A DNA stretch of 43,847 nt from a virus, in IMG/VR virus record IMGVR_UViG_3300030613_000005; one strand, given 5' to 3'. The notes under the pieces were generated by a model. It did not search any database, was not told the origin of the DNA, and worked only from the letters and a program-made list of their open reading frames with translations. Made by a program: the position numbers and the translations under genes. Positions 887-43,684 of this stretch are shown here, piece after piece. Position 1 is the stretch's first letter; the number at the start of each line of letters is the position of its first letter.

Positions 887-1996
887 ATGGGATTCCCTTC
901 TCCTGTAGCGCATGGAACAAATCCACAAGCTCAACAGCAGCAACAAGAAGATCCTATGGCTTTAATTATGGCCATGTTGAGTCAACCTGCACCGGATTTT
1001 AACACATCTGCACAGCAGCAAGCTGCGCAGATGTATGGCCCGTTGCAGAATAGTGTAAATCAAGCTGGTGCAAATGCTAGGAAGCAAGCTGGTGCTAACG
1101 ATCAGCAGTTGGCAGCTATGTATGCGGCTTTACAAAAAGATATTGGCGGCCAGTCTACAAATATTAATAGTGCATTTAACTCTGCTCTTGGTGGATCTAA
1201 AGCTGCTTACACTCAAGGTCAACAAAGCATTGGTAACAATTACGATCAAGCTATAGGAGATACTGCTGCCTTAATGGCGCGTTTAGGTATCCAAGCAGCA
1301 GCAGCGGATCCACGTACTATTCAACAGCAAAATGGGCAAGAAGCATTTCTAAAAAGTATTTTAGGTGTAAATAGTCAAGCAACTCAAAATGATCTTCTTT
1401 CAAATAGGCAAAGTAGCCTTAACTTTAACACTGCTTCTCGTAATGCTGCTGGTGCAGCTGGAACTCAAGCTCGATCTAGCCTTACTCAGCAGCTAACTAA
1501 TAGGCTGAATGAACTTGAACAGCAACGGCTACAGTATTCTGCACAGCAGTCCCAGACAGCACAGACACTAGCTGCACAATTGTCACAAGGCTACGCAGGT
1601 AACCAAACTGAACTAGCTAAAATGATGTACGACGCTTATAACAACCAAGCTAATAGAGACAATGATCTATTAAGAACTCAAATATCTTCTAACACTAACA
1701 ATAGCAGCAACACTAAAATTGGGCCGCTAACTACTGCATTTAGTCAGGCTCAGCAACTACTAGGCAATGAAGGTCAAGCTAGTCAAGCAGTTAATATTGC
1801 GCTACAGGTGGGCAATGCTAAGCAGTACCATAACGCCTACCAGTATATTCAGGCTGTACGAGAAGAAGCTAGAAAACAAGCTGCTTCTGACATGACTCGA
1901 GCTATCCCAGAAGATGCTTTAGCAGCAGTTGCAGCTACTGTATGGGAAGAGTTAAATCCACAGACACTTTCAAGCTATATGCCATACGGACAGTAA
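887..1996 (+). CDS. Hypothetical Gln/Ala/Asn-rich protein, probable internal virion protein
   Basis: 369-aa ORF with a GGAG RBS. Low-complexity, helical, Q/A-rich composition. Tightly packed within the structural operon. Confidence 0.8.
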   Translation: MGFPSPVAHGTNPQAQQQQQEDPMALIMAMLSQPAPDFNTSAQQQAAQMYGPLQNSVNQAGANARKQAGANDQQLAAMYAALQKDIGGQSTNINSAFNSALGGSKAAYTQGQQSIGNNYDQAIGDTAALMARLGIQAAAADPRTIQQQNGQEAFLKSILGVNSQATQNDLLSNRQSSLNFNTASRNAAGAAGTQARSSLTQQLTNRLNELEQQRLQYSAQQSQTAQTLAAQLSQGYAGNQTELAKMMYDAYNNQANRDNDLLRTQISSNTNNSSNTKIGPLTTAFSQAQQLLGNEGQASQAVNIALQVGNAKQYHNAYQYIQAVREEARKQAASDMTRAIPEDALAAVAATVWEELNPQTLSSYMPYGQ

Positions 1997-2006
1997 GTAG
2001 GTTAAG

Positions 2007-5000
2007 ATGGGCGGAAATCCGTTAATTGACCAGTACCTTAAGAACCTAGCAGCAGTTCAGCAGTTCCGTATTAATAATACACATGCTGGACGTCTAGATT
2101 CTTTTAGTGCTGGATCCCCTACCGCATTACAGTTAGCGCTGGAGGCTATGCGGGCTAGGTCGCCCATCGGAACATACACTCCTGCACAAAAAGAAGACAG
2201 TGGTTTTAAGTTTAGTTCTTTGTTTAAAGTGCCTGCCGATCAGGAGTGGCTACCTGATTGGATGAAAAAAGCTTACACAGTTTCTCAAATTATTAATCCA
2301 GCTGCACTAGCCGGTAGGGCAACAACTGAGGGTATTGCTAAAGCAGCAGAAGTTGGTCCTATTAAATGGGGTATTGAACAGCTATCACGGCCTATGTACG
2401 GTGTAGGCTCTATGATAGAAGATACGAATAAAAAAGCAGATGAGATGGGCCGTAGTCGCTGGATTGGCCCAGATGTAGACCCTAAAGCTTTAGCAACATC
2501 CTTTCTTGAAGGTATTACTCTTAAAAATAAGGTCACTCCTGGAGAAGCGTTATTAGGGAAACCAGAAGGCCCAGCTGAAGGTTGGGGAGACGTAGGTAAA
2601 GGTGCTGCTAGATTCGGGCTAGACGTAGCTTTAGATCCTCTTAGCTACATTGGTGTAGGCGCTGCTACTAAAGCAGGTAAAGTTAGCAAAACTGGTAAAG
2701 CAACTGAAATTATTCAAGGGATACCTAAAAAAGAACCTTTAGCTATTGAGAGGCATTCTGTTAGCACTCCTAGGTTTACAGCTGGAACTACTGGTATTGC
2801 TGATAGGTTTAACCCTATTCAGCTGGCTGATGAAATTACAGCTAGTTCTTTAACTAAAACTGTGGCTACTACGCCTAAGCTTGCTCATCCTGGTTTAAAT
2901 GTAGATCCTATCTTCAAGGATGTTACTACTGAAAGTATTGTACGTACTCCTAAGACTGTTACAGAAACTGTAGAAATACCGTCATTTTTAACAGAAGAGC
3001 CTAAAGTATCAAAGAGCCTTGCTCAGCGACGTGCCGTTAAAATGGCTATGCTACAATCTCCTGGATATAAAGTCCAAGGTCAATACACCATAAATGATTT
3101 ACTTAAGACCGCGGCAGAACACCCAGAACGTCAAGCAGACATTGAACGTATAATCAATGCTGAGGTTAATAGAGTATTCAAAGAACGTAAGGTAAATACT
3201 GTCTTACCTTCAAGTAAAACTGGACAACAGCTTATTCCTTTCACTGGTCGTGAAGGTACAGGTAAAGCTGCTTTTGGCCTTACACTTGAGCAAGCCACTA
3301 AACTTTTCAGTGAAGGTAAAATTGGCGGGACGTTAGGCGGATATGGTAGTAAAGAGGCACAAGACTTTCTTAGTGCTCTGCCTTTTCATGACCCTTCTGA
3401 TTTTAATATAGCAACACTTAAAAATGCTAAAGGCGCTACTGTAACACTTAAGCAGTATTTGGATGATCTGGGTGTAGATGTTACAGCAGTCACGCCTACT
3501 GGGGAACCGAAAAGTATTTTATCACACAGTGTGGATGACTCAGCTTTCGCAAGTATGGTAGTACCTAAGGCTAAAACAAAAACTGTCATAAAAACTATAT
3601 ACGAAGAAGTTAAGAAAACTACTGCAAAAACCCAACGTTTATCTCAAGCAGAATCCATTGCTTGGGCACTAAAGCACCAAGGTGTCTTGTCTAAAGATGA
3701 GATTTCTTATCTTCGTATTAGCAAGAATAGAGAAGAGTTCTTTGCTAGAGTAAAGGAGCTATCTACCAAACAAATTGCTGGTGACTTTAAAACACTACAG
3801 GCTGTGGTAGATGCGCACAAAGCTGGCCTAATCCCAGCTGAGGCATTTCAAAAGATTCTAGATATTGCAGGTGCTAAGAATGCAACTGAGTTACTCAAAA
3901 AAGCAGATAAAATTCTCAATGGCATTAAAGGTAAGTCTAAGGTTACTAGTGCACCTAAAGTAGAACGTATTAAAGGTAAAGCGCCTGACACTGTGTGGGA
4001 AGGTGTTAAATCTGTAGACCAAGTAATTTCAGATGTGTCTAAGGGCGATACTAGCCTAGTACAACCAGCCGCACCGGTTGTAACTCAGCAATTAGTTACA
4101 GACCTAACTAATGCGATCCCAGAAGCTGTTCAAAAGAATCTAGCACGTGTATTGGACCCTAAAGGTGAGTACAAATGGGAAACAACGATTAAGAAAGCTA
4201 AGAGGACATCCCCTGTAGCGGGACAAGGCTATGGGAGAAATCTTCATGGCTGGAATATGTACTCACAGTCAGATGTATTTAGGGCCTTAACAACGGGCGC
4301 CTCTAAACGGCTGTATGGAGTTACTAGAGGTAAAACAGGGTCAGCACTTCACGCAGCATTAAGAGTACGTCCCGCTATGATGTATACGCAAGTAATGTCT
4401 GCTATGCGTGCTGCTGAGTTTGCACTTAAAAAACAAGGCGTTAAGATAGTAGCAGGGTCTGATAACTCAGGTTTGTTACTATCCATGGTTGATGTGCTAG
4501 ACAGTTTAGAACCAAGACTTGTCCAGAAGTATCTCTTTAGTACAGCAGATAAGTTTGCACCTAATGTCTACCCAACTAAGTTTATTGCTGCGGCAGAAGC
4601 GTACGCCCAGACAGCCATCGGCGGAGGATCATTAGATCTAGCACGTGAAAATGCTATTTCTCTGTTTTCTAAGACAGGAACAGGGGAACGGTTCGGTAAA
4701 ACTGGATCAGTAGATGAATTAGTAAGCAGTATCGAAACTGCTATGCCTAGTATCATGCAACGAATTACTGCAAATTACGCAGAAGAGAGTATTAAGTTAG
4801 GAGAGTCTGTTGTGTCAATGACAGACTCTGTAATTAGTACACTACTTACAGAGTTCTCGAATCCTAGTGTTTCTATTGGTAAAGCTTTTGAGAAACTTAT
4901 GTCTAGCAGTTCTGATATGGCGGCTGTAGCTAAGAGCATAAGTGCCCCACAAGGAGCTGTACAAACAGCTAAAGTTGTGTTGTCCAGTGAACTTGCTACT

Positions 5001-7223
5001 AAAGGTATTTCTACTGGTGATTTAGCTGAAGCTGCAATAGCTAATAGAATGACTAGAGCTGCCACACCAGAGGAGGCTGCTAAAATTGGTACGGCTCAAC
5101 AGAAAACTAGGACTGCTGAGGCTGGACATACTGCTCAAGAAGCAGATGTTGTTGAACTTGGAGATATTTTTGATATCTCTCTTAATGCTGGTGTTTTCAG
5201 GGCTAACTCTCCTATGCTGGGAAAAGTTGTTGCCATAAAAGATATGCTAGGAAGAGCACTTTACGCTTCATATGGGCATGCAGATATGCACTATATGGTG
5301 CATAAAAACCGTAACGTAGTGCAAGAGTATTCTAGGCTGCACAGGCATATCATGATGAATACTCATGGAATTGCTCGTGCAACTTATGGTGCGGAAGCTA
5401 ATAGCAAACTAGCGGAGGCTTTTAAGATTCTTCAAACAGGGGCAAAAATTGAAGATCCCAGAATGGTTTCTTTGGTTGAGTCTATGGGTAACTCTATTGG
5501 TATTCTATTCGACGGGGGTAACGCCTCTTTCAGCGTTCGCAATGGGTTGTTTTCTTCTCACCTTAATACTGTTCTTAACTATTTTGGTGTACATAGTGCT
5601 TACAGGTTTAAAGACGGTGTGCCTCTTACTAAGCAAACAGAATCATGGAAAATGTGGGATGAGGTAACTGACCCACTAGACGTTTTAGATAAAGTACACG
5701 CAGCCTATCAACGAGCTACAGTGGAAGTTACGATTGGTAGAGATATCTCTGCACAATGGGGAAGTGGTGTTAAAAAAGAAGGATTTGTTAAAATAACCGA
5801 TAAACACAGCCGTAGCAAAGTATTTGGCTTTCTAGACTCCAGTCTATACTACCCCAGAGAGATCGTAGAACAGCTTCCACATCTTGATAGATTTTTAGAT
5901 GAGACGCTATTCCGCAGCAGTAGTGACCTCATGAAGATGTATGACTCTGTGTTGCATGCTTACAAAGCTGGTCTAACTATCTATCGCCCTGGTCACCATA
6001 TGCGTAACCTTGTTGGTGATATGGGTATGTCATTCTTGGCAGGTGTTACTAATCCTAATAGGTACTACGATGCTATGCGTATACTTAAGGGGCGTGCATC
6101 TACTTATTCTGGAGATTGGGACGCATTTAAATCGCTACAGGCGGGAGAGGCAGCGACTGGCGCTAAATTAGGTTCAGATACTGTACTTACTATAGGTAGA
6201 AAAAAAGTAAAAGCTACAGACGATGCAGTATGGCGCGGTGCTTTTAATCAAGGCCTTCTGAATGACTACTCAATAATGGAAGACATTGCGTTCAATGAAA
6301 GTCAAAAGTTTGGACGTACCACTAAAAAGGCTAGTCTTAGGTATCCTCTAGGTGGTAGGGTTCAAAGAGCAGCAGGTGGGCTATCCCAGAGTCGTGACCA
6401 TATGGTACGAATCGCCCATTTCGTAGACGTGCTTAAAAAAGGTAAGTTCAACACACTAGAAGAAGCATTTGAAGAAGCAGGTAAAGTAGTACGTAAGTGG
6501 CACCCTGACGGATCCGATTTAACTAAGTTTGAACGTCAGACTATGCGTAGAGTCATTCCATTCTATAGTTGGTTCCGTAAGGCTATTCCTCTAGTTTTAG
6601 AGGCTATGGTAACTAAACCTGGTCGAGCAATGATTATGCCTAAAGCTAGCTATGAATTTGCTCAGACTATGGGTCTAGACCCTGAAAGCCTAGGAGATCC
6701 TTTTCCCCAGGATCAACTATACCCTGACTGGATGCGCGATGATATTCTAGGACCACAGTGGACAGGCAGTCTTGATATCGGGCCTATTCATTTAGGCTCT
6801 GACAATGGACAACGTTTTGGTATGAACCCTGGAGATCCTATTTCTGATTTAGGATCAGGATACTTAGGTGGAGATGCTCCTAAACAAGTACTAGGCTCTC
6901 TTACGCCTGCTGTCAGGATTCCCTTGGAATTAGGCTCAGGTAATGCCTTAGGTACAGGTGCTCCAATTACAAATACCTCAGAATACTTATCACAACAGCT
7001 TCCTGTAATAAGTGTAGCAGGAGCAATTGCAGGTAAGGATGTTCTTGGTGGATGGCAAAATAAATCTGCCGTAGAAAAAGGGTATCAACCAGAAGGTTTA
7101 GATCCTATTGCATTACAAAACCTTTTGTTAGGGCTAGGCGTTAAATCGTTCAATAAGCCTAACCATGCTATATCTGCACAGTATGACCTGCGTGACAAAC
7201 TTCGTGAGCAGGCAGGTAAATAA
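2007..7223 (+). CDS. Giant virion protein (1738 aa), probable internal core/ejection protein
   Basis: Uninterrupted 5.2-kb ORF followed immediately by a transglycosylase gene. By size and position it is analogous to podovirus internal core proteins. I could recognise no catalytic motif. Confidence 0.75.
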   Translation: MGGNPLIDQYLKNLAAVQQFRINNTHAGRLDSFSAGSPTALQLALEAMRARSPIGTYTPAQKEDSGFKFSSLFKVPADQEWLPDWMKKAYTVSQIINPAALAGRATTEGIAKAAEVGPIKWGIEQLSRPMYGVGSMIEDTNKKADEMGRSRWIGPDVDPKALATSFLEGITLKNKVTPGEALLGKPEGPAEGWGDVGKGAARFGLDVALDPLSYIGVGAATKAGKVSKTGKATEIIQGIPKKEPLAIERHSVSTPRFTAGTTGIADRFNPIQLADEITASSLTKTVATTPKLAHPGLNVDPIFKDVTTESIVRTPKTVTETVEIPSFLTEEPKVSKSLAQRRAVKMAMLQSPGYKVQGQYTINDLLKTAAEHPERQADIERIINAEVNRVFKERKVNTVLPSSKTGQQLIPFTGREGTGKAAFGLTLEQATKLFSEGKIGGTLGGYGSKEAQDFLSALPFHDPSDFNIATLKNAKGATVTLKQYLDDLGVDVTAVTPTGEPKSILSHSVDDSAFASMVVPKAKTKTVIKTIYEEVKKTTAKTQRLSQAESIAWALKHQGVLSKDEISYLRISKNREEFFARVKELSTKQIAGDFKTLQAVVDAHKAGLIPAEAFQKILDIAGAKNATELLKKADKILNGIKGKSKVTSAPKVERIKGKAPDTVWEGVKSVDQVISDVSKGDTSLVQPAAPVVTQQLVTDLTNAIPEAVQKNLARVLDPKGEYKWETTIKKAKRTSPVAGQGYGRNLHGWNMYSQSDVFRALTTGASKRLYGVTRGKTGSALHAALRVRPAMMYTQVMSAMRAAEFALKKQGVKIVAGSDNSGLLLSMVDVLDSLEPRLVQKYLFSTADKFAPNVYPTKFIAAAEAYAQTAIGGGSLDLARENAISLFSKTGTGERFGKTGSVDELVSSIETAMPSIMQRITANYAEESIKLGESVVSMTDSVISTLLTEFSNPSVSIGKAFEKLMSSSSDMAAVAKSISAPQGAVQTAKVVLSSELATKGISTGDLAEAAIANRMTRAATPEEAAKIGTAQQKTRTAEAGHTAQEADVVELGDIFDISLNAGVFRANSPMLGKVVAIKDMLGRALYASYGHADMHYMVHKNRNVVQEYSRLHRHIMMNTHGIARATYGAEANSKLAEAFKILQTGAKIEDPRMVSLVESMGNSIGILFDGGNASFSVRNGLFSSHLNTVLNYFGVHSAYRFKDGVPLTKQTESWKMWDEVTDPLDVLDKVHAAYQRATVEVTIGRDISAQWGSGVKKEGFVKITDKHSRSKVFGFLDSSLYYPREIVEQLPHLDRFLDETLFRSSSDLMKMYDSVLHAYKAGLTIYRPGHHMRNLVGDMGMSFLAGVTNPNRYYDAMRILKGRASTYSGDWDAFKSLQAGEAATGAKLGSDTVLTIGRKKVKATDDAVWRGAFNQGLLNDYSIMEDIAFNESQKFGRTTKKASLRYPLGGRVQRAAGGLSQSRDHMVRIAHFVDVLKKGKFNTLEEAFEEAGKVVRKWHPDGSDLTKFERQTMRRVIPFYSWFRKAIPLVLEAMVTKPGRAMIMPKASYEFAQTMGLDPESLGDPFPQDQLYPDWMRDDILGPQWTGSLDIGPIHLGSDNGQRFGMNPGDPISDLGSGYLGGDAPKQVLGSLTPAVRIPLELGSGNALGTGAPITNTSEYLSQQLPVISVAGAIAGKDVLGGWQNKSAVEKGYQPEGLDPIALQNLLLGLGVKSFNKPNHAISAQYDLRDKLREQAGK

Positions 7224-7831
7224 TGGGAACAAACTACCATGCCCAGCTACTACAACGTCTAGACGCTATTAACAGTATTGGAGACAATCAGAATATATTT
7301 GCCCAACAGTTAGCAGCACAGCAAGCTCAACAAAGAGCAGCTCAATCGTCGTATAGTTCTACTAGTTATGTTGGTGGTGGTGGTGGTGGAGGCACCTCTA
7401 ACACTACTGGGTATGTTCCTGCGTCTGGCGCTAAAGGTAATACTTTTGAGAACTTTTTGCATGCTATTTCAGGACGAGAATCTGGAGGAAACTATAAAGC
7501 ACGCAACCCTGATTCTGGCGCATTAGGTAAATACCAGATTATGCCAGGGAATGTGGGCCCCTGGTCTAGGCAGATTCTTGGCTATTCTATCACGCCACAG
7601 CAGTTCTATGCAAGTCCAAAGTATCAAGAACAAATAGCTCAAGGCATGCTTCGTCAATACTATAATCAGTATGGTCCTGGCGGTGCTGCTGTAGCGTGGT
7701 ATGCAGGTCCAGGAACTGCTTCAAAGTGGATGAAAAATAGAAATAACGGTTACTACAACTCCCCACAAGGAAAGTATAGTAGCATTAATGCATACGCTCT
7801 AGGTATCATGCGCGCGATGGGAATTGCATAG
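7223..7831 (+). CDS. Lytic transglycosylase-like virion-associated peptidoglycan hydrolase
   Basis: The motif ISGRESGGNYKARNPDSGALGKYQIMPGN resembles the SLT-family catalytic Glu-Ser region. A poly-Gly linker lies upstream. ATAATG overlap with the upstream gene. Confidence 0.75.
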   Translation: MGTNYHAQLLQRLDAINSIGDNQNIFAQQLAAQQAQQRAAQSSYSSTSYVGGGGGGGTSNTTGYVPASGAKGNTFENFLHAISGRESGGNYKARNPDSGALGKYQIMPGNVGPWSRQILGYSITPQQFYASPKYQEQIAQGMLRQYYNQYGPGGAAVAWYAGPGTASKWMKNRNNGYYNSPQGKYSSINAYALGIMRAMGIA

Positions 7832-9155: not shown

Positions 9156-9613
9156 GGTGTCTCCTTCCGTTGTGCGTACTGCTTTTCTAGCTCAGTAGGA
9201 ATAATACCCTGCAAGTGAAGGTAGTACATGCCATGCAACGTGGCTGAGATTTGATGAGACATTGCATGATCTGTTGGCATTTTTATTTGAAACCACATTT
9301 GTGCAATAGATAGAATGCTGTCTGCTTGTTCAACTACTTTCAATTTATGCCGAATAGCCCACGACCTAATTGCACCAATAGTTTGGATAGTTTCTACTCT
9401 AGAGCCCTTATGGGATTGCAGTTTATGCGGTTTAATTATATATCTTTCATATACCACCACGTCTCCCGCTACAGGGGTCTGTCCTTCTAAAAAATGGACT
9501 AGGCCATCAAAAGTTAACTGGCCTATGTCTAGTAAATCACCTCCATCTTCAAACCTAGCGTAGCCTATAGTATTAGAGTGTCCGGCGCCTGGGTCAAATG
9601 CGTATAAGGCCAT
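9152..9613 (-). CDS. RuvC-like Holliday junction resolvase
   Basis: N-terminus MALYAFDPG (catalytic Asp), then VVVYERY (Glu). About 150 aa, as in phage RuvC-family resolvases. Confidence 0.7.
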   Translation of the reverse strand: MALYAFDPGAGHSNTIGYARFEDGGDLLDIGQLTFDGLVHFLEGQTPVAGDVVVYERYIIKPHKLQSHKGSRVETIQTIGAIRSWAIRHKLKVVEQADSILSIAQMWFQIKMPTDHAMSHQISATLHGMYYLHLQGIIPTELEKQYAQRKETP

Positions 9614-10070: not shown

Positions 10071-10312
10071 AGCACGGCCTCCGCTGTACATTCGAGCATG
10101 TGCTCTTTTATGCATTTTAAAAAGTCTCTAGTAGTGAATATACCGCCGCTAGGTAGCTCAATAAGGCTGCTACAACGGCCGCAAAATACATCGTCGTTGT
10201 AGTAGTAGATTAACCAATCAACTTCCCCACCTATGGACGTCAACTCGGAATCTGATTCCGAAGTCAGGTTGAACATCTTCCATAACTCTTTTAATTTCTG
10301 GTAAAACCTCAT
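10067..10312 (-). CDS. Hypothetical protein with CxxC motifs
   Basis: ORF coupled by ATGA to the downstream gene. Its 5' end overlaps the DNA polymerase 3' end by 59 nt or more. Confidence 0.4.
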   Translation of the reverse strand: MRFYQKLKELWKMFNLTSESDSELTSIGGEVDWLIYYYNDDVFCGRCSSLIELPSGGIFTTRDFLKCIKEHMLECTAEAVL

Positions 10313-11987
10313 GTGCTACCTCATCTCTCACAGCAAACACTACTGAGTCGTGTACTTGGAGTAGCATCTTACAGTCTGAACCGTCTACAGTATCGTAGAG
10401 TCTTCTCATAGTACCCTCTACGATGTCTGCTGCCCCACCCTGACAGGCAGAATTGAAAGCTTTATGCGCTTCTTCATCTACAAATCTGAAATGACGGTAT
10501 CTTCCAGACCATAGTTTAATACGCTTATTCTTCTTAGCTGTACTTGACGCTAGATTAGACGCATTTTTGAATCCCGGGTATCCTGCGAAAAATTGGGCTC
10601 GCATTTGCTCTGCCGTAAGCGCATCCACGTTGAAGACGTTTTTGATTCGGCGAATACCTCCACCATACTGGATTGTGTATACCAATGTCTTCTGATCGTT
10701 ACGAGTAAGCCCTGTTTTTTCCGCCATCTCAGTAAAGATATCACGTGTGTCATCAGCAAAAAGCTCCATTAAACTAGCATCACGTGAGTAATGTGTTGCC
10801 AGTCGTAACTCTAGCTGTGAGTAGTCTCCTTCGTATAGTGTCCACCCTGGGTCTTCAATGAAAACTTTCTTCATCTCACCATTCCAGGGATGAAGTGATT
10901 TTTTAGGAATTTGCTGTAGGTTAGGGCTCTCGCAAGACCAACGACCAGTTTTAGTACGGTGCAACTTATAGTTTGGCCTTAGCCTACCGTCTGGACTTAG
11001 TAATGCTACATACGGCTTATAGTTAGAACTTACTGCTTTTTGCCAACCACGATATGCTCTAATTAATTTTGCTGTGTCATTGTCCCTTCTTTCTAGCATC
11101 TCGTCGTACTCTTCCATCGCATACTTGTCAAAGGAAGGGTTACCTGTTGGGGTTACTTTAACTATTGGTAAACCTAGCTCTGTCAGCAACAGATGTGCTA
11201 GGTCCTTATTAGATCCTGGATTTCTACCTAGGATCTCCCTAATATCTTCTAGCTGTTCATCTCCAATATACGCCATTCGTTCACTTAGCGGTACATCAAT
11301 CTTTATTCCTCTGCGTTCCATTGCCCTAACAATATTGATTATCTGTCTCTTACCTATCCAGTAACCTTCTAGCCCTTCTGCTTTGAACTTAGGGTGAAGA
11401 TGCTCAAATAGACGTAGAGTTAAGTCAGCGTCGTAAGAAGCGTATTCATACATCTCAGGAGATGGGATTGTGTCCCATCCATGCTTATCTGTCCAACGTT
11501 TAAACTCTGGACTGTCCTTTTTACCTGGATCATCAATCCAATGTTTAGACGTGGAGTTCAGACTCTGAGAATAAATATTTTCATTTAGCAGATAGCTCAT
11601 CATCATGGTACAATAGTCGGCAGTGCCTCCTATGACCACACCGATAGTGCCAAGGGATTCCAAATCGAATTTCAAATTGTGATATACGTTCGGGAAGCCC
11701 TGAGATTCCCTGAACTTCAAAACTTCTCGTAGCTGTTCTAGATACTGCTTTTCTAAGTTTTCTCCAAACCTGTGGCGAAACGGCATATAGTGAGATAGTA
11801 ACCCTCGAGGATGACGATAAGCGAACGATATGCCTTGGCAATACCCTCTCCCATCCCTAAGATCCTCACCATTAGTTTCTGTGTCTACAGCTACTACGGG
11901 GGCTGTAGCGGCGGCATTTAGTACGTCAACTAAATCCAAATGTTGGTCTGGATTCCGGTGGCTTACTGGTACTTTCGAGAAGTCCAT
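10218..11987 (-). CDS. Family A DNA polymerase with 3'-5' exonuclease domain
   Basis: Exo motifs VAVDTETNG, YHNLKFDL and YASYDADL. Pol motif A DYSQLELRL, motif B KTLVYTIQYGGG, motif C QVHDSVVF. Confidence 0.92.
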   Translation of the reverse strand: MDFSKVPVSHRNPDQHLDLVDVLNAAATAPVVAVDTETNGEDLRDGRGYCQGISFAYRHPRGLLSHYMPFRHRFGENLEKQYLEQLREVLKFRESQGFPNVYHNLKFDLESLGTIGVVIGGTADYCTMMMSYLLNENIYSQSLNSTSKHWIDDPGKKDSPEFKRWTDKHGWDTIPSPEMYEYASYDADLTLRLFEHLHPKFKAEGLEGYWIGKRQIINIVRAMERRGIKIDVPLSERMAYIGDEQLEDIREILGRNPGSNKDLAHLLLTELGLPIVKVTPTGNPSFDKYAMEEYDEMLERRDNDTAKLIRAYRGWQKAVSSNYKPYVALLSPDGRLRPNYKLHRTKTGRWSCESPNLQQIPKKSLHPWNGEMKKVFIEDPGWTLYEGDYSQLELRLATHYSRDASLMELFADDTRDIFTEMAEKTGLTRNDQKTLVYTIQYGGGIRRIKNVFNVDALTAEQMRAQFFAGYPGFKNASNLASSTAKKNKRIKLWSGRYRHFRFVDEEAHKAFNSACQGGAADIVEGTMRRLYDTVDGSDCKMLLQVHDSVVFAVRDEVAHEVLPEIKRVMEDVQPDFGIRFRVDVHRWGS

Positions 11988-14894: not shown

Positions 14895-15056
14895 CCAGGA
14901 GGTTCCTAGTGACGTAGTTCCCTGGCATTTTAAGGGGGCGGATTATCACTCATAAATTTCAGCTATGCTCCCATAGCCTACTACCGCACTTCACTCTGAT
15001 CCCTCATCAATCCACTACAGGGCCACCCCTCACAGGTTACTGTAGCGGAAGTTTAA

Positions 15057-18343: not shown

Positions 18344-18437
18344 TCACCTAATTGGTAGGGCTACTGTCGTGCGCTGCTTCACCCTGTCTAGGTAAAGCGT
18401 AGCACACCGACACGGGACGAGTCTAATCGAACAGGTG

Positions 18438-27995: not shown

Positions 27996-28067
27996 TTCAT
28001 CGGACGCGTGGAGCTCTGTAGCGGGAACAATTCGGGCAAGCCGCCGCATTTGTTTCCATGCAGCTTA

Positions 28068-28937: not shown

Positions 28938-29429
28938 ATGATTAATCCTTATAAAGCAGCTAGGGAGGATCTTGGTTTATCCCAAGCATCTGTAGCCGAG
29001 GCTTCTAATGTCTCTAGACATTATGTGCTTCGTGTAGAACAAGGTTTATTCCATGTCCCTAGTCCTCGCCTAAGCACAACTCTTAATATAAGTCATATGG
29101 AACTTACAGATACTTACCATGAATGGCAGCATATTACTCGTGCTTTAGCTGCCCCTTCTGTAGCGGAGGGCGTAGAAAAGTATTTTCAAAGTGTACTAGT
29201 TCCTCTACAGAATAAACATCCTCATATAAAGCTACGTCAGTGTATTACAGATTCACAAGTGGCTTTTTGCATCCTGCTTAAGATTCAGCCTTCTAGACTA
29301 AGTGCATATGAAAAATCTAAAGGCATTACATTACCACTATTTCTAAAGGAGGCTTACTTTGACTGCGGAGTCACCCCTGAACAGCTTAATAGAATCGAAT
29401 CCAGATTCCGAGGAGCTACTCTCAGATAA
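28938..29429 (+). CDS. Xre/Cro-type helix-turn-helix regulator
   Basis: The N-terminus DLGLSQASVAEASNVSRHYVLRVEQG is a classic HTH_3-like pattern. First gene of the rightward arm. Confidence 0.75.
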   Translation: MINPYKAAREDLGLSQASVAEASNVSRHYVLRVEQGLFHVPSPRLSTTLNISHMELTDTYHEWQHITRALAAPSVAEGVEKYFQSVLVPLQNKHPHIKLRQCITDSQVAFCILLKIQPSRLSAYEKSKGITLPLFLKEAYFDCGVTPEQLNRIESRFRGATLR

Positions 29430-33993: not shown

Positions 33994-36111
33994 ATGAGTC
34001 CGAAGCAGCGGCTCTCGAACAGCTTGGCATCCCTCCTGAGTGGACAAGCCACCTCTAATGATCCTGGAGAGTCTTTACTAGGTAAGATACAAGAAGGTAA
34101 GGAAGCTACTCAATTAGCTGCATGGGTTAAATCATCGTATACTGATGCTAAGAGTACACGCTCTCGTACAGAGCTTTCTTGGAGCATGAACTTAGCTTTC
34201 TTCTATGGCAAACAGTGGTTAGAAGTAACTGCTATCAGTGGAGGAAAACTAATCCAACCTAAAGCACCGCCTTACCGTGTGCGACAGACTATTAACAGGA
34301 TTCGTCCTGCTATTAGGACAGAGATTTCACGTTTAATTTCTCAAAAGCCTACTGCTAGTATTATTCCTTCATCTAGCGATGATGAGGATTTAGCAGCAGC
34401 ATATGCAGGTGAACAGCTATGGGAAGCAATTTCCCAGAAAAAGAAATATCAACGAGAGCTTCGTCTAACTGCGTTCTGGACCCTTATTTGTGGTACAGGA
34501 TTCATGAAAACTTGGTGGGACGCTTCTACTACAGATGAAGGCGGTAACCAGGGAGACATAAAATTTGAGTGCGTAACCCCTTATCATCTGTACGTCCCTG
34601 ATCTTCGCATCACTGATATCCAGGAACAGCCGTACTTAATCAATGTCTATACACGTACTGTAGCGCAGCTGCAACAAATGTATGGTTCTAGAGGCATAGA
34701 TATCAGTAAAATGGGTATTAACTCTAATGTAGTAGCGTCACAAGAGATTTTAAGTGATTCAATCTTAAACTTATCTGGTTCGTCTAAAACTGAACCAGAT
34801 AGCGTGCTGTGCTATGAGCTGTGGGCTAAGCCAGGTGCTCACAAGTTGTTACCTAAAGGTGGAATGGTACAAGTAGCAGGGGATAAAGTTACTTACTGGT
34901 CACGCGAAGGTATTCCCTATTCGCATGGTAGGTATCCTTTTGCTAAGCTAGAACACATGCCTACTGGTAAGTTTTATACAGAGTCTACAATTTTAGACTT
35001 AATTGGTCCTCAAAGAGAATACAATAGGCTTCGTAGTTTCTTGATTGAAAATCGTAATAGGTCAGCTAAACAGCAATTAGTAGCCGCTAAAGGTTCTGTA
35101 GAGCCAAATAAGATTACCACAGAGCCTGGTCAAGTTATTTTCTATAAACCTGGTATGCCTCCACCTGTGCCACTACAGGTGCAGAATATGCCTCCATATG
35201 TTATGGAGGAACAGAATCGTATTCTATTAGATATTGAGGATATTTCCGGTCAGCATCAAGTATCTAAAGGTAGTGCTCCTCCTGGTGTCACGGCTGCAAC
35301 TGCAATTTCATTCTTGCAAGAAAAAGATGATAGCCTCATGGCTACTACTTATGCAAGCATGGAAGAGTTTTGTGAGGAAATAGCCCAACAGACACTAGAG
35401 CTAGTTAAACAGTATTGGGATAGCACCCGTACAGTAAAAACTGCTGGGGAAGATGGTAGTTTCGACGTACTACAGCTGCTAGGTTCTAGTATCGATACAG
35501 ATATACGCATGGAAGGCGGCTCTGCTTTACCAACTAGTAAAGCAGCACGTCAAGCTTTCCTTATGGATATGATGAAAATGGGCTTTATTTCTCCACAAGA
35601 GGGATTAAAGCTTATGGACATGGGTGGAGTTCAAAAACTCTATAAGACCCTTAAGGTAGATGAGTCTCAAGCACAGCGTGAAAACATTAAGCTAAAGACA
35701 GTAAAAGAAGAAGATATCCAACAGCATATGATGCAGTTCCAATCTCTTGCCATGTCAGGAGACCCTGCTACGCTAGATGCAGAAACACAGATGCCTATGG
35801 AGCCTCCGGCTATAGTTCCGGTTAATAGCTGGGATAACCATATGGTGCACATCACAGTACACAATAACTTCCGTAAGACACAGGCTTTTGAAATGCTTCC
35901 AGATGTAATTAAAACTGAATTTGAAAAGCATGTAAATGACCATGTAATGGCACAAAATGACGCTATGATGCAGATTCAACAAGCAACAGGACAGGACCCC
36001 TCAGCTTTAATGGGCGGTCCAGGTGGTAGTCCAAGTGGAGAACCACCTATGCCAACCACAACTCCAGACAATGCCGGAATTGCTCCGCCAGAGATGATGG
36101 GAATGGGATAA
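33994..36111 (+). CDS. Portal protein
   Basis: 705 aa, preceded by the RBS GGGGAGG. Lies downstream of terL and upstream of scaffold and capsid. Gly/Pro-rich C-terminal tail. Confidence 0.8.
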   Translation: MSPKQRLSNSLASLLSGQATSNDPGESLLGKIQEGKEATQLAAWVKSSYTDAKSTRSRTELSWSMNLAFFYGKQWLEVTAISGGKLIQPKAPPYRVRQTINRIRPAIRTEISRLISQKPTASIIPSSSDDEDLAAAYAGEQLWEAISQKKKYQRELRLTAFWTLICGTGFMKTWWDASTTDEGGNQGDIKFECVTPYHLYVPDLRITDIQEQPYLINVYTRTVAQLQQMYGSRGIDISKMGINSNVVASQEILSDSILNLSGSSKTEPDSVLCYELWAKPGAHKLLPKGGMVQVAGDKVTYWSREGIPYSHGRYPFAKLEHMPTGKFYTESTILDLIGPQREYNRLRSFLIENRNRSAKQQLVAAKGSVEPNKITTEPGQVIFYKPGMPPPVPLQVQNMPPYVMEEQNRILLDIEDISGQHQVSKGSAPPGVTAATAISFLQEKDDSLMATTYASMEEFCEEIAQQTLELVKQYWDSTRTVKTAGEDGSFDVLQLLGSSIDTDIRMEGGSALPTSKAARQAFLMDMMKMGFISPQEGLKLMDMGGVQKLYKTLKVDESQAQRENIKLKTVKEEDIQQHMMQFQSLAMSGDPATLDAETQMPMEPPAIVPVNSWDNHMVHITVHNNFRKTQAFEMLPDVIKTEFEKHVNDHVMAQNDAMMQIQQATGQDPSALMGGPGGSPSGEPPMPTTTPDNAGIAPPEMMGMG

Positions 36112-37370: not shown

Positions 37371-38579
37371 ATGGGCGCAACCCTTACTACTATTAGTGCA
37401 GTAGCTAAAGAGCTGTATGAAGGCAGTCTTAACAAGCAGCTCAATGACGAAACAGTCACCTTAAAGCGTGTTGAGCGCTCTTCTGAGGGTGTTAGTTCTC
37501 AGGTTGGCGCAAAATATGTTAACTTCCCTATCCACACCCGTCGTAATGCTGGTGTTGGTGCACGTCGAGAAATGGAAGCACTACCGACCGCAGGTAATCA
37601 GTCAACTGCTGGATGCCAGGTTGGGTTACGCTATCTTTACGGTTCAATCCGTATGTCTGGCCAGACACTTAAATTAGCTAAAACTAATACGCAGGCGTTC
37701 ATTTCTGCGTTAGAACTTGAAATGAACGGTATGAAGTCTGACCTAGCAGTTGACTTCAACCGTCAGATTTACGGTAATGGTACTGGCGCACTTTGTATAG
37801 CTACTACTGCCGTAGGTGGTGGTGGCGGAAACACTGTTACTTGTGCCGCTGGGACACAGTGGGTCCAGTTAGGCATGAAGGTTGATTTATACGACGCTAC
37901 AGGTGCGACTGCAACCTGGACTAACCGTACAGTAACTACTATTACGGACACCGTCGTTACTATTGATGGCGCAGCATTCGTAGTAGTTCTTGGTGACTTC
38001 TTAGTTCGCACAGGCTCTGTTGGTGAAACAGATGGTGATCCTCAACGCGAACTAACTGGTCTTGGCAAGATGGTTGCTTCCAGCGGTGCGTTGTACGGTG
38101 TAACAGACTCGGTATGGACTTCTGTTATTGACACTAACTCTGGCACTAACAGGGCTCTTTCTGAGGGCCTCATGATTAAAATGGCTGACGATATCCGTAA
38201 ACGTGGTGGGAAAACTACTGCTATTTTCTCTAACCTCGGCGTACGTAGAAGCTACTTCAACTTACTCGTACAGCAACGACGAGTTACTAACACTCAGAAG
38301 TTTGAAGGTGGGTTTAGCGGTTTAGCCTTCTCTACCGACGATGGGGATGTTCCAGTTGTAGTAGACACTCAGGCGAAGTTAAACAGCCAGTATTTTCTCA
38401 ATGAAAAAGAAATTAAGCTTTTCCAGGAATCCGATTGGTCTTTCATGGATCACGACGGTTCTATGTGGGATCGCGTCACGGGATATGATGCCTATGACGC
38501 TACTCTCGTTAAGTATGCAGAAATTGCTACTCATCGTCGTAATTCACAAGGTGAGATTCAGGATATTACTGAGGGTTAA
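37371..38579 (+). CDS. Major capsid protein (HK97-fold class)
   Basis: 402 aa. Follows the scaffold gene and is followed by a strong terminator. Size and position are typical. The fold is inferred, not shown. Confidence 0.8.
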   Translation: MGATLTTISAVAKELYEGSLNKQLNDETVTLKRVERSSEGVSSQVGAKYVNFPIHTRRNAGVGARREMEALPTAGNQSTAGCQVGLRYLYGSIRMSGQTLKLAKTNTQAFISALELEMNGMKSDLAVDFNRQIYGNGTGALCIATTAVGGGGGNTVTCAAGTQWVQLGMKVDLYDATGATATWTNRTVTTITDTVVTIDGAAFVVVLGDFLVRTGSVGETDGDPQRELTGLGKMVASSGALYGVTDSVWTSVIDTNSGTNRALSEGLMIKMADDIRKRGGKTTAIFSNLGVRRSYFNLLVQQRRVTNTQKFEGGFSGLAFSTDDGDVPVVVDTQAKLNSQYFLNEKEIKLFQESDWSFMDHDGSMWDRVTGYDAYDATLVKYAEIATHRRNSQGEIQDITEG

Positions 38580-39128: not shown

Positions 39129-40052
39129 ATGCTATTATCTAGACTTGGAGTAGCGCCTACTACCCCCGGAGCCTCAGGGGGTAGGGATAACTTAGTAGCA
39201 GGCACTTATAGACCAGGTGCTACAACTACAGGGTATTTAACAGGAACTAGTTTTACAGTAGTAAGTGGAAATGTAACGCACTCTACACCAAGCACTGTGT
39301 ATAGGAATACTAAATTTGAAGGTAAAGTAACTAGAGCAGCTAGCAACTGTTCGTATCTTAACTGCTGGTTTGCTGGAGAAGCTTCTCCAGTAGCCTCTAG
39401 CCCTCTAGTAAACTGTGACAATGATTATACTGGTACTTATTTTGAAGACTGTACTTTCCAGCCAGGCACACCTAATGTGTATCATTCCTATGGTGTTGTG
39501 GGCGAGGGTTTTACAGCCAAAAGATGTTACTTTAGATACGCTATAGATGGAGTAAGAATACGTAACCTCAACGGCGCTGTAGCGAGTGTTACAATTGAAC
39601 AGTCTTTTATTGATGAATTAGCTTGGTGGGCTTCTGATCCAGATCAAGTAGATGGTAGCCACAATGATGGTATTCAGATGGAAGGTGGATCAGGTATTGT
39701 AATTAGGTACAACTATATTAGAGGATACAGTTGTCAAACTCCTGGTATTGGTGACCAACCAACAGGTAGAAACCCAAGTCAACCGCAAGCTCTTTCTGCG
39801 CTGATGTACACAAATAACGTCAATGCTATTAATGCTCAGGTCTATAGTAATTGGCTTGCTGGTGGCGAAATCACTATAAATGCCACAAAAGATTCTTTAT
39901 CTGGAACAGATATTGGTTCCATTAGTGATAATACTTTTGAGGCTAATTCGTACTACTCAGGACATTCTTTAGACGTTCAGTCAGGAATGACGTATTCCCA
40001 GACTAATAATAGGTATGAGTCTGGAACCCTAATCACAGTGCATTCGGGGTGA
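39129..40052 (+). CDS. Right-handed beta-helix (pectate-lyase-fold-like) protein, possible tailspike/depolymerase
   Basis: Repetitive N/G/I-rich turns. DGSHNDGIQMEGGSGIVIRYNYIRG and NCWFAG are typical of parallel beta-helix repeats. Confidence 0.55.
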   Translation: MLLSRLGVAPTTPGASGGRDNLVAGTYRPGATTTGYLTGTSFTVVSGNVTHSTPSTVYRNTKFEGKVTRAASNCSYLNCWFAGEASPVASSPLVNCDNDYTGTYFEDCTFQPGTPNVYHSYGVVGEGFTAKRCYFRYAIDGVRIRNLNGAVASVTIEQSFIDELAWWASDPDQVDGSHNDGIQMEGGSGIVIRYNYIRGYSCQTPGIGDQPTGRNPSQPQALSALMYTNNVNAINAQVYSNWLAGGEITINATKDSLSGTDIGSISDNTFEANSYYSGHSLDVQSGMTYSQTNNRYESGTLITVHSG

Positions 40053-40813: not shown

Positions 40814-41095
40814 ATGGCAGCAAGATTAGGTAGACGGCAGCCCACTAACATTTATAGGGCCTCCCCTGTAGCGGATTTAAGCACTATTCTAGCAGAAGTA
40901 ACTATTCCTTATCCACATACTACTGTAACAGACAAAATAGTGTATGAACTTGACCAAGATGGGTATGTTACTGGAACAATATCAGATAGGGAATACGCAA
41001 GATTACTAATTCAAACAGGAGCGCCTAGCGAAGGCCACACTATGATGGACCTGTACAGGCTTGCTGGAGAGGAGCCTAGGATTTATGGATACTAG
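40814..41095 (+). CDS. Hypothetical protein (93 aa)
   Basis: ORF starting 2 nt after the upstream stop. Confidence 0.6.
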   Translation: MAARLGRRQPTNIYRASPVADLSTILAEVTIPYPHTTVTDKIVYELDQDGYVTGTISDREYARLLIQTGAPSEGHTMMDLYRLAGEEPRIYGY

Positions 41096-41528: not shown

Positions 41529-42182
41529 ATGCCACTAGCTGGAGCTACTAAAACTGTTGCGGAAGTAGTTACTTACGTACAACGGCAGTTTGGTGATGAA
41601 TCTGGCGCGCAAGTAACTGATGCTGACATCCTTAGATGGACTAATGCAGCTCAGTTAGAAATTGCACGTCAGACTGACTATAGCCAAGACCTAGCTACTA
41701 CTGTTTCTGTAGCAGATCAAGAAGGGTATAGCCTTCCTGGAGTAGATATTCTTACAGTAAAAAGTATCTACTACAAAGGAAAGCCATTAAACCATATATC
41801 ATTTAACACATACCAAGAAAGTATACTGTCCCAGCAGCCTGAAGACTCAGACAATAGTGGGATACCTACTGTCTGGTATGAGTGGAAAGATTCTATCTAT
41901 TTGTATCCTATTCCGGATACAAGTGGAGAGGCAATTAAACTCTATTTCACAAAAAAGCCTACACTATTGACTCTTACTACAGATACCCTTAGTGCTCCTG
42001 ATTCACTGTGGCAAGCTATTATACAATTTGTTATGGCTCAAGCGTATGAGCTAGATGATGATCTACAGGGATCAACATATAAGACTAATCAGTTAAAAGA
42101 AATGCTAGGTAGTATTGACACTACTTCTAGCCAAAAATACTACCCTATTATTACTGTTCTGGCAGAGGATGCTGACTTATAA
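41529..42182 (+). CDS. Head-tail adaptor-like protein
   Basis: 217 aa. Its position before the nozzle-like gene, together with the N-terminal pattern ILRWTNAAQLEIARQTDY ... YSLPGVD, resembles adaptor families. Inferred. Confidence 0.45.
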   Translation: MPLAGATKTVAEVVTYVQRQFGDESGAQVTDADILRWTNAAQLEIARQTDYSQDLATTVSVADQEGYSLPGVDILTVKSIYYKGKPLNHISFNTYQESILSQQPEDSDNSGIPTVWYEWKDSIYLYPIPDTSGEAIKLYFTKKPTLLTLTTDTLSAPDSLWQAIIQFVMAQAYELDDDLQGSTYKTNQLKEMLGSIDTTSSQKYYPIITVLAEDADL

Positions 42183-43684
42183 TGCCAGGACAAATGTTGA
42201 AACTTGGTCCCTTTAAAGGTGGGCTGAATAATTTAAGTGACCCTACTTCGATTAAAGATGATGAAGTAGCTTCTTGCATAAACTTTGACTACGATTCTGA
42301 CGGAACTTTAATTTCTCGCCCACCTATTGCTGCCGATACGGATGGGCCTGTTGCAGCAAAAACAGTTGATTACCTTAGTTACTACATTTCTACTACAGGT
42401 GCTGTTTATTTGGTAGCTTGTAGCAATAGTAACCTGTACTATAAGTCAAGTGGCGTCTGGACGTTAATTACTTCGGGAGTAACAGCGTCTGCTGCTATCC
42501 AATACCTTAATAAACTATGGGTAGTAGCAGATGAAGGTTCAACAAACAATGGTGGGTCTTGGGATCCTGTTGCAGGTTGGACTACTATTGCGTCTATGCC
42601 AAAAGGCAGTGCAATAACCACCTTCAAAGAACGTCTTTGGATTGCTGGTGGTAAGCTTTCTACAAGCAATCAATCTCGTCTTAACTTCTCTGCTATTGCA
42701 GATGGCACTACTTGGAATAGTGCTGACTTTTTTGACATTAATCCTGGTGACGGTCAGGCTTTAATTGATATTGTTTCAGTCAGTACCAACTTGTTTCTGT
42801 TTAAACAACACTCTACACATGTTATGCAGTATGACTCAGCACCTAGTAAAGCAGTTATTACACCTGTCTCTAGGACTGTTGGTGTCGACGATATACGTTG
42901 TATTGTCAACTATGAAAACGTCCTATATGTATACAATGATGGCTATTTGTACGAGTTAATCAACTTTACCTATAACAAAATAAACACACGAATTAGCATA
43001 GCGGCAAACGCTACAGGTTCTTATGTGAGACCTATAAGTGTGTCTCTAGTAGGTAATAGAGTTGTCGTCAACTATTACGGGAATATTTTTGTATTTTATT
43101 TATTCACACGAACTTGGTCACAGTGGACGGTGGCTTCAGCTATCGGTAAATTTTTACAGACACCCTATAGTGCTTCAGGGTCCACTCCTTATACATATGT
43201 AGCTGCTTGTAATACAGCGGATAACAGAAGCACATTCAACTTTGTAGATGGGTACTTAGCGGGTAGAAGTGAATCCGCTACAGCAACGGTGGTATCTAAG
43301 ATCTATGATTTTAATGCCCCTAATATGTTTAAGAAGCTATATTGGTGGGGCATTGATATATTAGCTAGTGGGTCTTTAGTAGCTACTGTTACACCTGTTA
43401 TATATAATGCTTCTGTTACGTGGGCACAGATGGCTGCATTTACATGGGCAGAAGTAGCTAGCTATACGTGGAATCGCCCTGCCGCTTCCAACGTCTCTGT
43501 GTCTGAAACAATCAATACTACTGGTGCAATTCGTAAGTTCATTAAGATTAAGAAAGCTGTGCGCTTTAGAAACGTATACTTTACACTAGCTTTTACTATT
43601 AGCGATTGGCAAAACCCAATTCGTGTGTATAGCATTACACCTGTCATCAACATGAAAGAACAGGTTGTTAAAACAGTTAACTAG
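42182..43684 (+). CDS. Tail tubular/nozzle-like structural protein (500 aa)
   Basis: ATAATG overlap with the upstream gene. Beta-rich repetitive sequence. The call rests on position only. Confidence 0.4.
   Translation: MPGQMLKLGPFKGGLNNLSDPTSIKDDEVASCINFDYDSDGTLISRPPIAADTDGPVAAKTVDYLSYYISTTGAVYLVACSNSNLYYKSSGVWTLITSGVTASAAIQYLNKLWVVADEGSTNNGGSWDPVAGWTTIASMPKGSAITTFKERLWIAGGKLSTSNQSRLNFSAIADGTTWNSADFFDINPGDGQALIDIVSVSTNLFLFKQHSTHVMQYDSAPSKAVITPVSRTVGVDDIRCIVNYENVLYVYNDGYLYELINFTYNKINTRISIAANATGSYVRPISVSLVGNRVVVNYYGNIFVFYLFTRTWSQWTVASAIGKFLQTPYSASGSTPYTYVAACNTADNRSTFNFVDGYLAGRSESATATVVSKIYDFNAPNMFKKLYWWGIDILASGSLVATVTPVIYNASVTWAQMAAFTWAEVASYTWNRPAASNVSVSETINTTGAIRKFIKIKKAVRFRNVYFTLAFTISDWQNPIRVYSITPVINMKEQVVKTVN

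Follow-up and report, generated by a model that had tools for sequence, protein, structure and literature searches.

The IMG/VR virus record IMGVR_UViG_3300030613_000005, a stretch of 43,847 nucleotides that we analyzed whole and call the window, carries 28 copies of one non-palindromic octamer, CTGTAGCG, spread along the genome at regular distances. The word is selected as DNA and follows the phage lineage rather than the host, and sister lineages carry their own versions of it. Its layout resembles the recognition sites of enzymes that belong to the superfamily of archaeo-eukaryotic primases (AEP), and the phage is predicted to encode such an enzyme. The reading that we favor, and hold tentatively, is that CTGTAGCG is the preferred initiation or recognition site of the phage's AEP primase-helicase.

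An exact count over both strands gave 16 copies on the plus strand and 12 on the minus strand, a density of 0.64 per kb. Dinucleotide shuffles produced 1.12 ± 1.09 copies with a maximum of 5, in line with a previous sequence-only reading that had counted 28 copies by eye and expected about one. CTGTAGCG is the commonest 8-mer of the window by a factor of two (the next unrelated 8-mer occurs 14 times), and the word is sharp because its 24 one-mismatch neighbors sum to just 44 copies. The longer common versions picked out by eye, TCCCCTGTAGCG (three copies) and CTGTAGCGGGAAC (two copies), are both present, and a recount of the flanks in the window returned the same weak bias, with C at −1 in 14/28 sites and G at +1 in 14/28. 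The two ends of the window overlap exactly, and the window is thus a closed circular genome of 43,720 bp; no site lies within the overlap, so none was double-counted.

43721..43847, no strand: 127-bp exact repeat of bases 1-127, an assembly overlap

The 28 sites are listed below with their genes or open reading frames (ORFs). The coordinates reported earlier were all right except for two typos, 12770 for 12760 and 39587 for 39577.

903..910, plus: ORF 887-1996, sense, P-V-A
1800..1807, minus: ORF 887-1996, antisense
4213..4220, plus: gene of a 1738-aa virion protein, sense
6133..6140, minus: gene of the 1738-aa virion protein, antisense
7689..7696, plus: ORF 7223-7831, sense
9467..9474, minus: ORF 9152-9613, sense
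11903..11910, plus: PolA gene, antisense
12559..12566, plus: primase-helicase gene, antisense
12760..12767, minus: primase-helicase gene, sense
15040..15047, plus: intergenic
17391..17398, plus: PD-(D/E)XK exonuclease gene, antisense
19806..19813, plus: intergenic
20747..20754, minus: ORF 20703-20972, sense
23594..23601, minus: SNF2 gene, sense
24239..24246, plus: SNF2 gene, antisense; orthologous site in relative L060
25670..25677, minus: ORF 25400-25855, sense
26304..26311, minus: ORF 26032-26523, sense
28016..28023, plus: intergenic
29158..29165, plus: HTH_3 gene 28938-29429, sense; orthologous site in relatives L058 and L060
30942..30949, plus: conserved 105-aa ORF, sense, A-C-S-G
33060..33067, plus: TerL gene, sense
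34658..34665, plus: portal gene, sense; orthologous site in L060
36242..36249, minus: small ORF 36111-36347, antisense
37895..37902, minus: major capsid gene, antisense
39577..39584, plus: ORF 39129-40052, sense
40866..40873, plus: ORF 40814-41095, sense
43009..43016, minus: ORF 42182-43684, antisense
43276..43283, minus: ORF 42182-43684, antisense

With crude gene calls that span 93% of the sequence, 25/28 sites fell within genes, about equally sense and antisense. Together, the sites occupy four of the five possible strand/frame classes plus intergenic DNA:

x-Val-Ala: 11 sites
x-Cys-Ser: 4 sites
Leu-Gln, antisense: 3 sites
Ala-Thr, antisense: 7 sites
intergenic: 3 sites

The frames given previously for individual sites (P-V-A at 903, 4213, 33060 and 40866, and A-C-S-G at 30942) are correct. 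A codon-preserving shuffle, which the sequence-only reading had proposed as a check, left the word enriched: shuffling synonymous codons within each gene gave a mean of 5.3 copies and shuffling codon order a mean of 4.4, with a maximum of 11 versus the 28 real copies, and these counts take in the ~3 intergenic sites that lie outside the shuffled codons. Because the codon-preserving shuffles fall short and several frames are used, we conclude that CTGTAGCG is selected as DNA and not as a peptide; the spacing of the sites (see below) agrees with this conclusion, which the sequence-only reading had also drawn. A by-product of codon usage, of a repeated peptide or of base composition might be suspected from the 11/28 sites that read x-Val-Ala in one frame, but the shuffles, the use of four frame/strand classes and intergenic DNA, the lack of enrichment among one-mismatch neighbors, and relatives that keep the same word at other positions leave such an artefact with a negligible chance.

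The window is the complete circular genome of a podovirus-like actinophage. We found no near-identical relative among deposited phages by DNA similarity. Its TerL and family-A DNA polymerase (PolA) share ~40% identity with their counterparts in Arthrobacter phage Jasmine and its kin, in Cellulosimicrobium phage DS1, in Microbacterium phage Shocker and in a freshwater podovirus contig, and the gene order is the same as in Jasmine, DS1, Shocker and the freshwater contig. Relatives were gathered by an alignment-based scan of IMG/VR and by exact-protein look-ups; an IMG/VR search with the single primase protein returned no close relative, and a metagenome scan returned one fragment. TerL has more than 1800 homologues. 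The resulting close set comprises seven related phage contigs and nine loci (two contigs are represented twice), with TerL 61-70% and primase 45-71% identical to the window and a GC content of 38-49%. Absence from close relatives would have told against the word, according to the sequence-only reading; instead, CTGTAGCG is the top word in all close-set loci, at 0.7-1.4 per kb:

L058: 15 copies of CTGTAGCG in 18.0 kb
L060: 16 copies in 11.6 kb
L062: 12 copies in 16.3 kb
L063: 9 copies in 13.6 kb
L148: 19 copies in 21.8 kb
L149: 27 copies in 21.8 kb
L150: 16 copies in 16.3 kb
L151: 23 copies in 21.8 kb

Mapped through protein alignments, only three window sites (24239, 29158 and 34658) are orthologous in relatives, and one portal-gene site common to four relatives is missing from the window. 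With so few orthologous sites, it is the density of the word that is conserved and not its position.

We also observed that the more distant relatives (Jasmine, DS1, Shocker and many metagenomic contigs) each have a top word of their own, which starts with CTGT:

Jasmine: CTGTGGG (47 copies), also CTGTGGG(A); CTGTGGGA (23 copies)
DS1: CTGTCG (116 copies)
Shocker: CTGTCG (84 copies)
freshwater contig L004: CCTGTAGG (28 copies)
L030: CTGTAGGT (31 copies in 21.6 kb)
L147: CCCTGTAGG

The CTGTCG word is carried by DS1, Shocker, L006, L011 and L013, and CTGTAGG(T) by L004, L014-L030 and L147. Irrespective of GC content (0.38 to 0.63), family members have the dominant CTGTNG hexamer at ~1.1-3.7 per kb, and the five complete genomes have it at 1.8-2.5 per kb. 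Loci with only a distant N-terminal primase match showed no CTGT words.

Some relatives carry other enriched words. Four IMG/VR relatives (L009, L010, L012 and L028) are enriched for C-GGTAA(A)G(A) beside or in place of CTGTGG. Three IMG/VR contigs that have only the distant AEP N-terminal match (L037-L039) hold octamers of their own, TAGACGAG and CGTCGTAA, at 8-11 copies versus ~0.5 expected, and from these contigs it may be that other AEP-primase phages carry private words too. Shocker (L003) has 45 copies of CTGTAAAG(G), four of them near each genome end (e.g., 98, 162, 179 and 440; 45045-45387). We considered CTGTAAAG(G) as a sister word and set it aside as probably a different element: 40% of its copies lie between genes and point the same way as these, and its letters combine a stop codon with a ribosome-binding-like AAGG.

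Next to copy number, the second property of the word is its spacing, which had looked even to the eye. In the window, the gaps between CTGTAGCG sites have a coefficient of variation (CV) of 0.44 versus 0.95 under random placement, and the largest gap, previously put at about 2.85 kb, measures 2847 bp versus ~6100 bp expected (P = 2e-5 for a circular and 3.5e-4 for a linear genome). The mean spacing is 1.57 kb for all sites and 2.7 kb for plus-strand sites alone. The plus-strand copies taken alone are regular as well (CV 0.46, P = 8e-4 in the window; CV 0.59, P = 7e-4 in Jasmine), and they exceed random relabeling of the same positions in regularity (P = 0.04 in the window and 0.007 in Jasmine), which points to a strand-specific function. 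A tendency toward regular spacing recurs in L149, L151, L150 and L060.

For strand counts, genomes were oriented with their structural genes on the plus strand. Plus copies outnumbered minus copies in 5/5 complete genomes:

window, CTGTAGCG: plus to minus 16:12
Jasmine, CTGTGGG: 33:14
DS1, CTGTCGC: 28:19
Shocker, CTGTCGG: 23:11
L004, CTGTAGG: 27:20

The same excess was present in the loci of all seven close relatives, for a total of 77:51. In Jasmine, it is found in the rightward- and leftward-transcribed halves alike, and therefore reflects the polarity of the strand and not of the sense strand.

We then pooled 156 distinct sites from the window and the octamer-sharing relatives to define the anatomy of the site. 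Each of the eight core positions is tightly specified, and no single substitution reaches more than ~12% of the count for the consensus. On the 5′ side, the flank is C-rich at exactly −1 to −3 (54/51/42% C versus 22% background) and depleted of A, while +1 prefers G (46%), so that the full consensus reads ccc-CTGTAGCG-g. There is no information beyond −3 and +1, which rules out that the word is part of a longer repeat. The family words can all be parsed as a constant CT followed by a variable part that begins with G-T: GTAGCG in the window, and GTGGG, GTCG or GTAGG in the sister lineages.

This parsing is close to the known site of the AEP primase of plasmid pRN1 (ORF904), which primes only on 5′-N1N2-GTG-3′ and for which the standard template is 5′-CTGTGCTCA-3′ (PMC13469122). 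There, ATP is placed opposite T2 as the first nucleotide and dGTP opposite C1 as the second, only pyrimidines are active at N1 with C the best, and the GTG immediately 3′ of the start is not copied but read by the helix-bundle domain (PMC13469122). The phage words share with pRN1 the templating pyrimidines C and T, followed directly on the 3′ side by a G-T element of the kind that a helical ancillary domain reads, and Jasmine's CTGTGGG holds the pRN1 site CTGTG exactly. The enzyme class also appears to be the same, namely one protein that unites AEP catalytic, helical and helicase parts. The two systems differ in that the read part of the phage site would be 4-6 bases long (GTAGCG) rather than three, with A rather than G as the third read base, and in that the phage has a candidate recognition site spaced throughout a 44-kb genome whereas pRN1 has a motif in a 5-kb plasmid. 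By this comparison, the site layout looks to be of the AEP type, with two templating pyrimidines and then a G-T read element on the 3′ side.

A phage precedent is NrS-1, whose AEP enzyme recognizes the 8-nt site 5′-TTTGGTTA-3′ as well as 5′-GTG(A/G)-3′ and begins synthesis at the base immediately 5′ of the site; its many GTG sites have been contrasted with the far fewer 8-nt sites (PMC8718748). The parallel with the window lies in a phage AEP enzyme with a helix-bundle domain, an 8-nt site that can be used, and a start at the first base 5′. The NrS-1 sequence differs, however, and its paper reports no genome-wide enrichment or regular spacing (PMC8718748). In addition, the NrS-1 enzyme is its own replicative polymerase, whereas the window phage has a separate PolA. 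Similarities extend to T7 gp4 and to E. coli DnaG, the site of which is 5′-CTG-3′, in the combination of a cryptic 3′ base with copied bases, in the ancillary domain of a helicase-linked primase, and in the use of the lagging-strand template. T7 gp4 primase sites are 5′-(G/T)(G/T)GTC-3′, and flanking bases modulate their use (PMC8599759). These two enzymes are DnaG/Toprim primases and not AEP, and their trinucleotide cores are so frequent that selection on copy number is neither needed nor known.

The proposed reader of the motif is encoded next to PolA:

11926..13767, minus: primase-helicase, 613 aa, proposed motif reader; AEP catalytic domain at about aa 1-210, helical, helix-bundle-like region at about aa 233-315, and C-terminal AAA_25 / DnaB-RepA-like helicase at aa 347-519
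10218..11987, minus: family-A DNA polymerase, 589 aa, its gene next to that of the primase-helicase and in overlap with it; 40% identical to the protein annotated as DNA polymerase I in Arthrobacter phages, with a DNA_pol_A Pfam match on orthologues

Residues 347-519 of the primase-helicase match Pfam AAA_25, and PHROG labels the relatives' proteins as primase or primase/helicase. An AlphaFold (AF2) model of aa 1-350, built with 24 homologues, has a mean pLDDT of 85 and consists of a beta-rich domain followed by a helical region at ~233-315. A Foldseek search of this model against the PDB returned full-length RepB′ first (3h20, E 8e-9, 324 aligned columns covering the catalytic and helix-bundle domains), and then, in order, the AEP domain of the S-2L cyanophage PrimPol (6zp9, TM 0.73 on the target), the DNA-bound RepB′ catalytic domain (3h25) and LigD polymerase domains. 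A sequence profile gave weak matches to RepB′ and S-2L PrimPol with the D-x-D and S-x-H motifs aligned. The model thus predicts an AEP-superfamily primase with a catalytic and a helical ancillary domain. RepB′ of RSF1010 is described as an AEP-like primase that is sequence-specific and needs its helix-bundle domain to form dinucleotides (PMC8567376). The phage primase region has its best structural match in RepB′, but the RepB′ sites (ssiA/ssiB) are two 40-nt hairpins in one origin rather than dozens of short dispersed words. We found no DnaG/Toprim primase Pfam family on record for the called genes of the window contig segment or of the relatives' contigs, and no other primase was evident.

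A priming signal was one of several hypotheses in the sequence-only reading, and it is now the favored one by analogy: the word has the architecture of an AEP primase site, and the phage appears to encode a primase of that type. In the mechanism that we envisage, the hexameric helicase would travel 5′→3′ on the lagging-strand template, and the helical domain of the primase would read G3-T4-A5-G6-C7-G8 on single-stranded DNA. Synthesis would start opposite T2 (first nucleotide A) and continue opposite C1 (G), and the primer would run into the C-rich 5′ flank and so begin 5′-AGGG; the C-rich −1 to −3 positions fit a templated region for such a purine-rich primer. Within a template oligonucleotide, the site would take the form 5′-...CCCCTGTAGCGG...-3′. 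The adjoining PolA would then extend the primer. Each lineage would own a version of the read part (GTAGCG, GTAGG, GTGGG or GTCG) while the copied CT would stay constant, and copies would be kept at Okazaki-fragment distances, ~1.5 kb when both strands are counted and 2.7 kb on the strand with more copies. In T7, Okazaki fragments span 1-6 kb, and those of E. coli are 1.5-2 kb long (PMC8599759); the two regular spacings observed in the window are on this scale. Because 6-8 specified bases occur by chance only about once per genome, selection would have to plant and keep the copies. A primase site of this kind would explain the number of copies and their regular spacing, including its strand-specific side, as well as why positions turn over and why the word varies between lineages.

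Several observations weigh against the primase reading. We infer the link between the primase and the word by analogy, and the helix-bundle assignment, which depends on a predicted model and on one Foldseek alignment with a high rmsd that we attribute to domain orientation, is provisional. The motif classes agree with the neighbor-joining tree of every one of six proteins (primase, helicase, PolA, HNH-like, Cas4-like and AAA_24), and covariation is therefore unable to single out the primase. Known primases mostly need three specified bases, and a need for eight would be unusual. The signal may also be graded rather than a single word, because the non-extended hexamer CTGTAG is enriched ~2.5-fold and a second octamer that has CCTGTA in common with CTGTAGCG, ACCTGTAC, occurs 11 times versus 1.8 expected (maximum 5 in shuffles), at 3256, 6952, 12634, 13179, 16568, 20516, 28769, 32521, 40433, 41049 and 42432; CTGTAC, with 47 copies, is the second commonest CTGTNN hexamer of the window. 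Finally, the strand polarity is weak. The strand excess is modest, with 43% of the window copies on the other strand, the minus-strand copies show no regular spacing, and in the window and its relatives we saw no switch of orientation at any candidate origin and none that would mark a bidirectional origin.

The near-random order of orientations along the window (16 runs by hand count versus ~14.7 expected) would suit a different reader, for which CTGTAGCG is a double-stranded site of another phage protein: the HNH-like candidate nickase encoded at 17742-18347, the SNF2 helicase, the small terminase or a nucleoid organizer. Spaced nicks or bound proteins would then serve replication start, recombination, torsional relief or condensation, largely independently of orientation. 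We consider this explanation unlikely, though deserving of weight.

17742..18347, minus: Cys-rich protein with an HNH-like motif (HH..N..H..CxxCH), called gene 179 aa (179/201-aa), the candidate reader in the nickase version
22461..24452, minus: SNF2-family helicase that has a zinc ribbon; it belongs to the core genes of the phage family and is a further conceivable DNA reader

Such a site could likewise be lineage-specific and maintained by density, the combined sites are more regular than the minus set alone, the very conserved Cys-rich protein is a core family gene, and phages T5, phiKMV and tf carry sequence-specific nicks. The Cys-rich protein is conserved in Jasmine, DS1 and Shocker and has 870 metagenomic homologues, with invariant blocks STGRKRAA, CEW and RHHGPDKNTLNN..GNVHRIC..CHNRWH in the alignment. 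It has no sequence match in Pfam, PHROG, NCBIfam or the PDB, however, and its fold matches to HNH proteins are non-significant (E>1); the HNH assignment of the 201-aa protein was thus not upheld, and it appears to be an uncharacterized, very conserved family in the replication module. Moreover, a double-stranded site leaves unexplained the constant 5′ CT-GT and the one-sided C-rich flank, both of which a primase site explains, and the regularity of the plus copies above relabeling also speaks against it. A role as a DNA-modification target or as a decoy for a host defense protein, in which the copies mark self or titrate a host factor, is very improbable. The word is sharp, lineage-specific and high in copy number, and anti-defense-like small genes are present (Tad2-like in the window, Acb2/Tad1-like in a relative), but this role predicts neither regular spacing nor the CT-GT architecture. 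No DNA methyltransferase or other modification-enzyme Pfam family is on record for the called genes of the window contig or four relatives, and a restriction-modification target was rejected for want of a cognate enzyme in this set.

The sequence-only reading had also raised a host Chi-like signal, in which the word would attenuate a host helicase-nuclease (RecBCD, AddAB or AdnAB) on linear phage DNA and protect replicating or packaged DNA. Chi is GCTGGTGG in E. coli and AGCGG in B. subtilis, and CTGTAGCG resembles Chi in being short, non-palindromic, dispersed and maintained by density, with a modest one-strand excess in every genome examined that would go with an orientation-dependent function; about half of the sites also end in AGCGG. 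That last likeness, pointed out earlier, needs the +1 G, which is found in just 46-50% of sites. Chi is a property of the host and is over-represented in host DNA, whereas CTGTAGCG follows the phage lineage. We used proxies for the window's host, which makes these comparisons indirect. Two unrelated phages of Arthrobacter ATCC 21022 (Jasmine's host strain) lack Jasmine's words, and one unrelated phage of M. paraoxydans NWU1 (Shocker's host species) lacks Shocker's words. A 200-kb sample of a 1.35-Mb Arthrobacter replicon had CTGTGGG and CTGTGGGA at 0.88 and 0.51 of expectation, and in 1.4 Mb of Mycobacteriales/Pseudonocardiales chromosomal loci, which are not the real host orders, the tested family words were not clearly enriched (ratios 0.08-1.39). 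Because the unrelated same-host phages lack the words and the Arthrobacter DNA is not enriched for them, the signal belongs to the phage lineage and not to the host. The same octamer is kept by phages of 38-49% GC, and family members on different host genera share CTGT, which together with the proxy counts is evidence against a host Chi. The phage also owns a recombination module: besides a Cas4-like nuclease and an AAA_24 ATPase, it includes a gene with counterparts in Jasmine and Shocker that are annotated as Holliday junction resolvase. We regard a Chi-like function as improbable.

Two further classes of repeated site were rejected. DNA uptake sequences (DUS/USS), found at about 1 per kb in the genomes of naturally competent hosts, have a similar density, but the word is lineage-bound and not enriched in the actinobacterial proxy DNA sampled. 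The stoperators of cluster A mycobacteriophages are 13-14 bp, intergenic and co-oriented with transcription, and bind the repressor of a temperate phage; CTGTAGCG is like them in the ~25-35 copies of one asymmetric word across an actinophage genome, but differs in lying mostly within genes, on either strand.

Primase recognition sites, long AEP ones included, are already known. We found no mention in the searchable literature of the present words or of the family-wide signature, nor a description of an 8-base candidate primase site that is positively selected and regularly spaced over an entire genome, or of an entire phage family whose sister lineages differ in their version of the site. It is possible, though doubtful, that this phage family has swapped the usual three-base primase signal for a private code of 6-8 bases that differs by lineage. 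If so, the starts of Okazaki fragments would be hard-wired and regularly spaced in the genome. Since the word is 25-fold rarer elsewhere, the primase would work efficiently on no DNA but that of its own phage, and such priming would amount to a replicative discrimination of self from non-self. The word and the helix-bundle domain would have to co-evolve, which would raise a barrier to recombination between lineages, and the family would offer a natural series of AEP helix-bundle domains with specificities for GTAGCG, GTAGG, GTGGG and GTCG.

It is not yet settled how primases select the start sites of Okazaki fragments: E. coli DnaG leaves ~97% of its trinucleotide sites unused, and in T7 the sizes of the fragments disagree with the frequency of GTC (PMC8599759). 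A countable start signal, with 28 sites, a word that is kept while its positions are not, and sister versions, would make this choice directly testable, and the mechanism could be tested directly in cultured family members such as Jasmine. Even with another reader protein, the finding stands as a family-wide genomic signature, and the word may help to recognize and classify these widespread, mostly uncultured actinophages.

The DNA-metabolism genes that the window shares with its family are the family-A polymerase, the 613-aa primase-helicase, the AAA_24 ATPase, the Cas4-like PD-(D/E)XK nuclease, the Cys-rich HNH-like-motif protein and the SNF2 helicase, and the structural genes form an SU10-like module. 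Among the window genes examined, we saw no integrase. We assign the phage to Actinobacteria as hosts because a WhiB-like gene is present.

Four small ORFs or ORF pairs are also worth recording. A small ORF at 31095-31361, just upstream of TerL, is Tad2-like (PF11195), an anti-defense-like family match, and another at 15057-15272 is the counterpart of an Acb2/Tad1-hairpin (PF24729) gene in L150. The 105-aa ORF at 30775-31092 (phrog_36468) lies directly upstream of the terminase genes. No other small protein of the phage family is as well conserved: it has 53-62% identity to Jasmine, DS1 and Shocker, where TerL is only ~40% identical. Lastly, the WhiB-like ORF at 8402-8869 (plus) and an opposite-strand ORF at 8583-9155 (minus) overlap by ~290 bp; the latter has a counterpart in Jasmine, whose annotated WhiB-like gp31 and gp32 overlap likewise.

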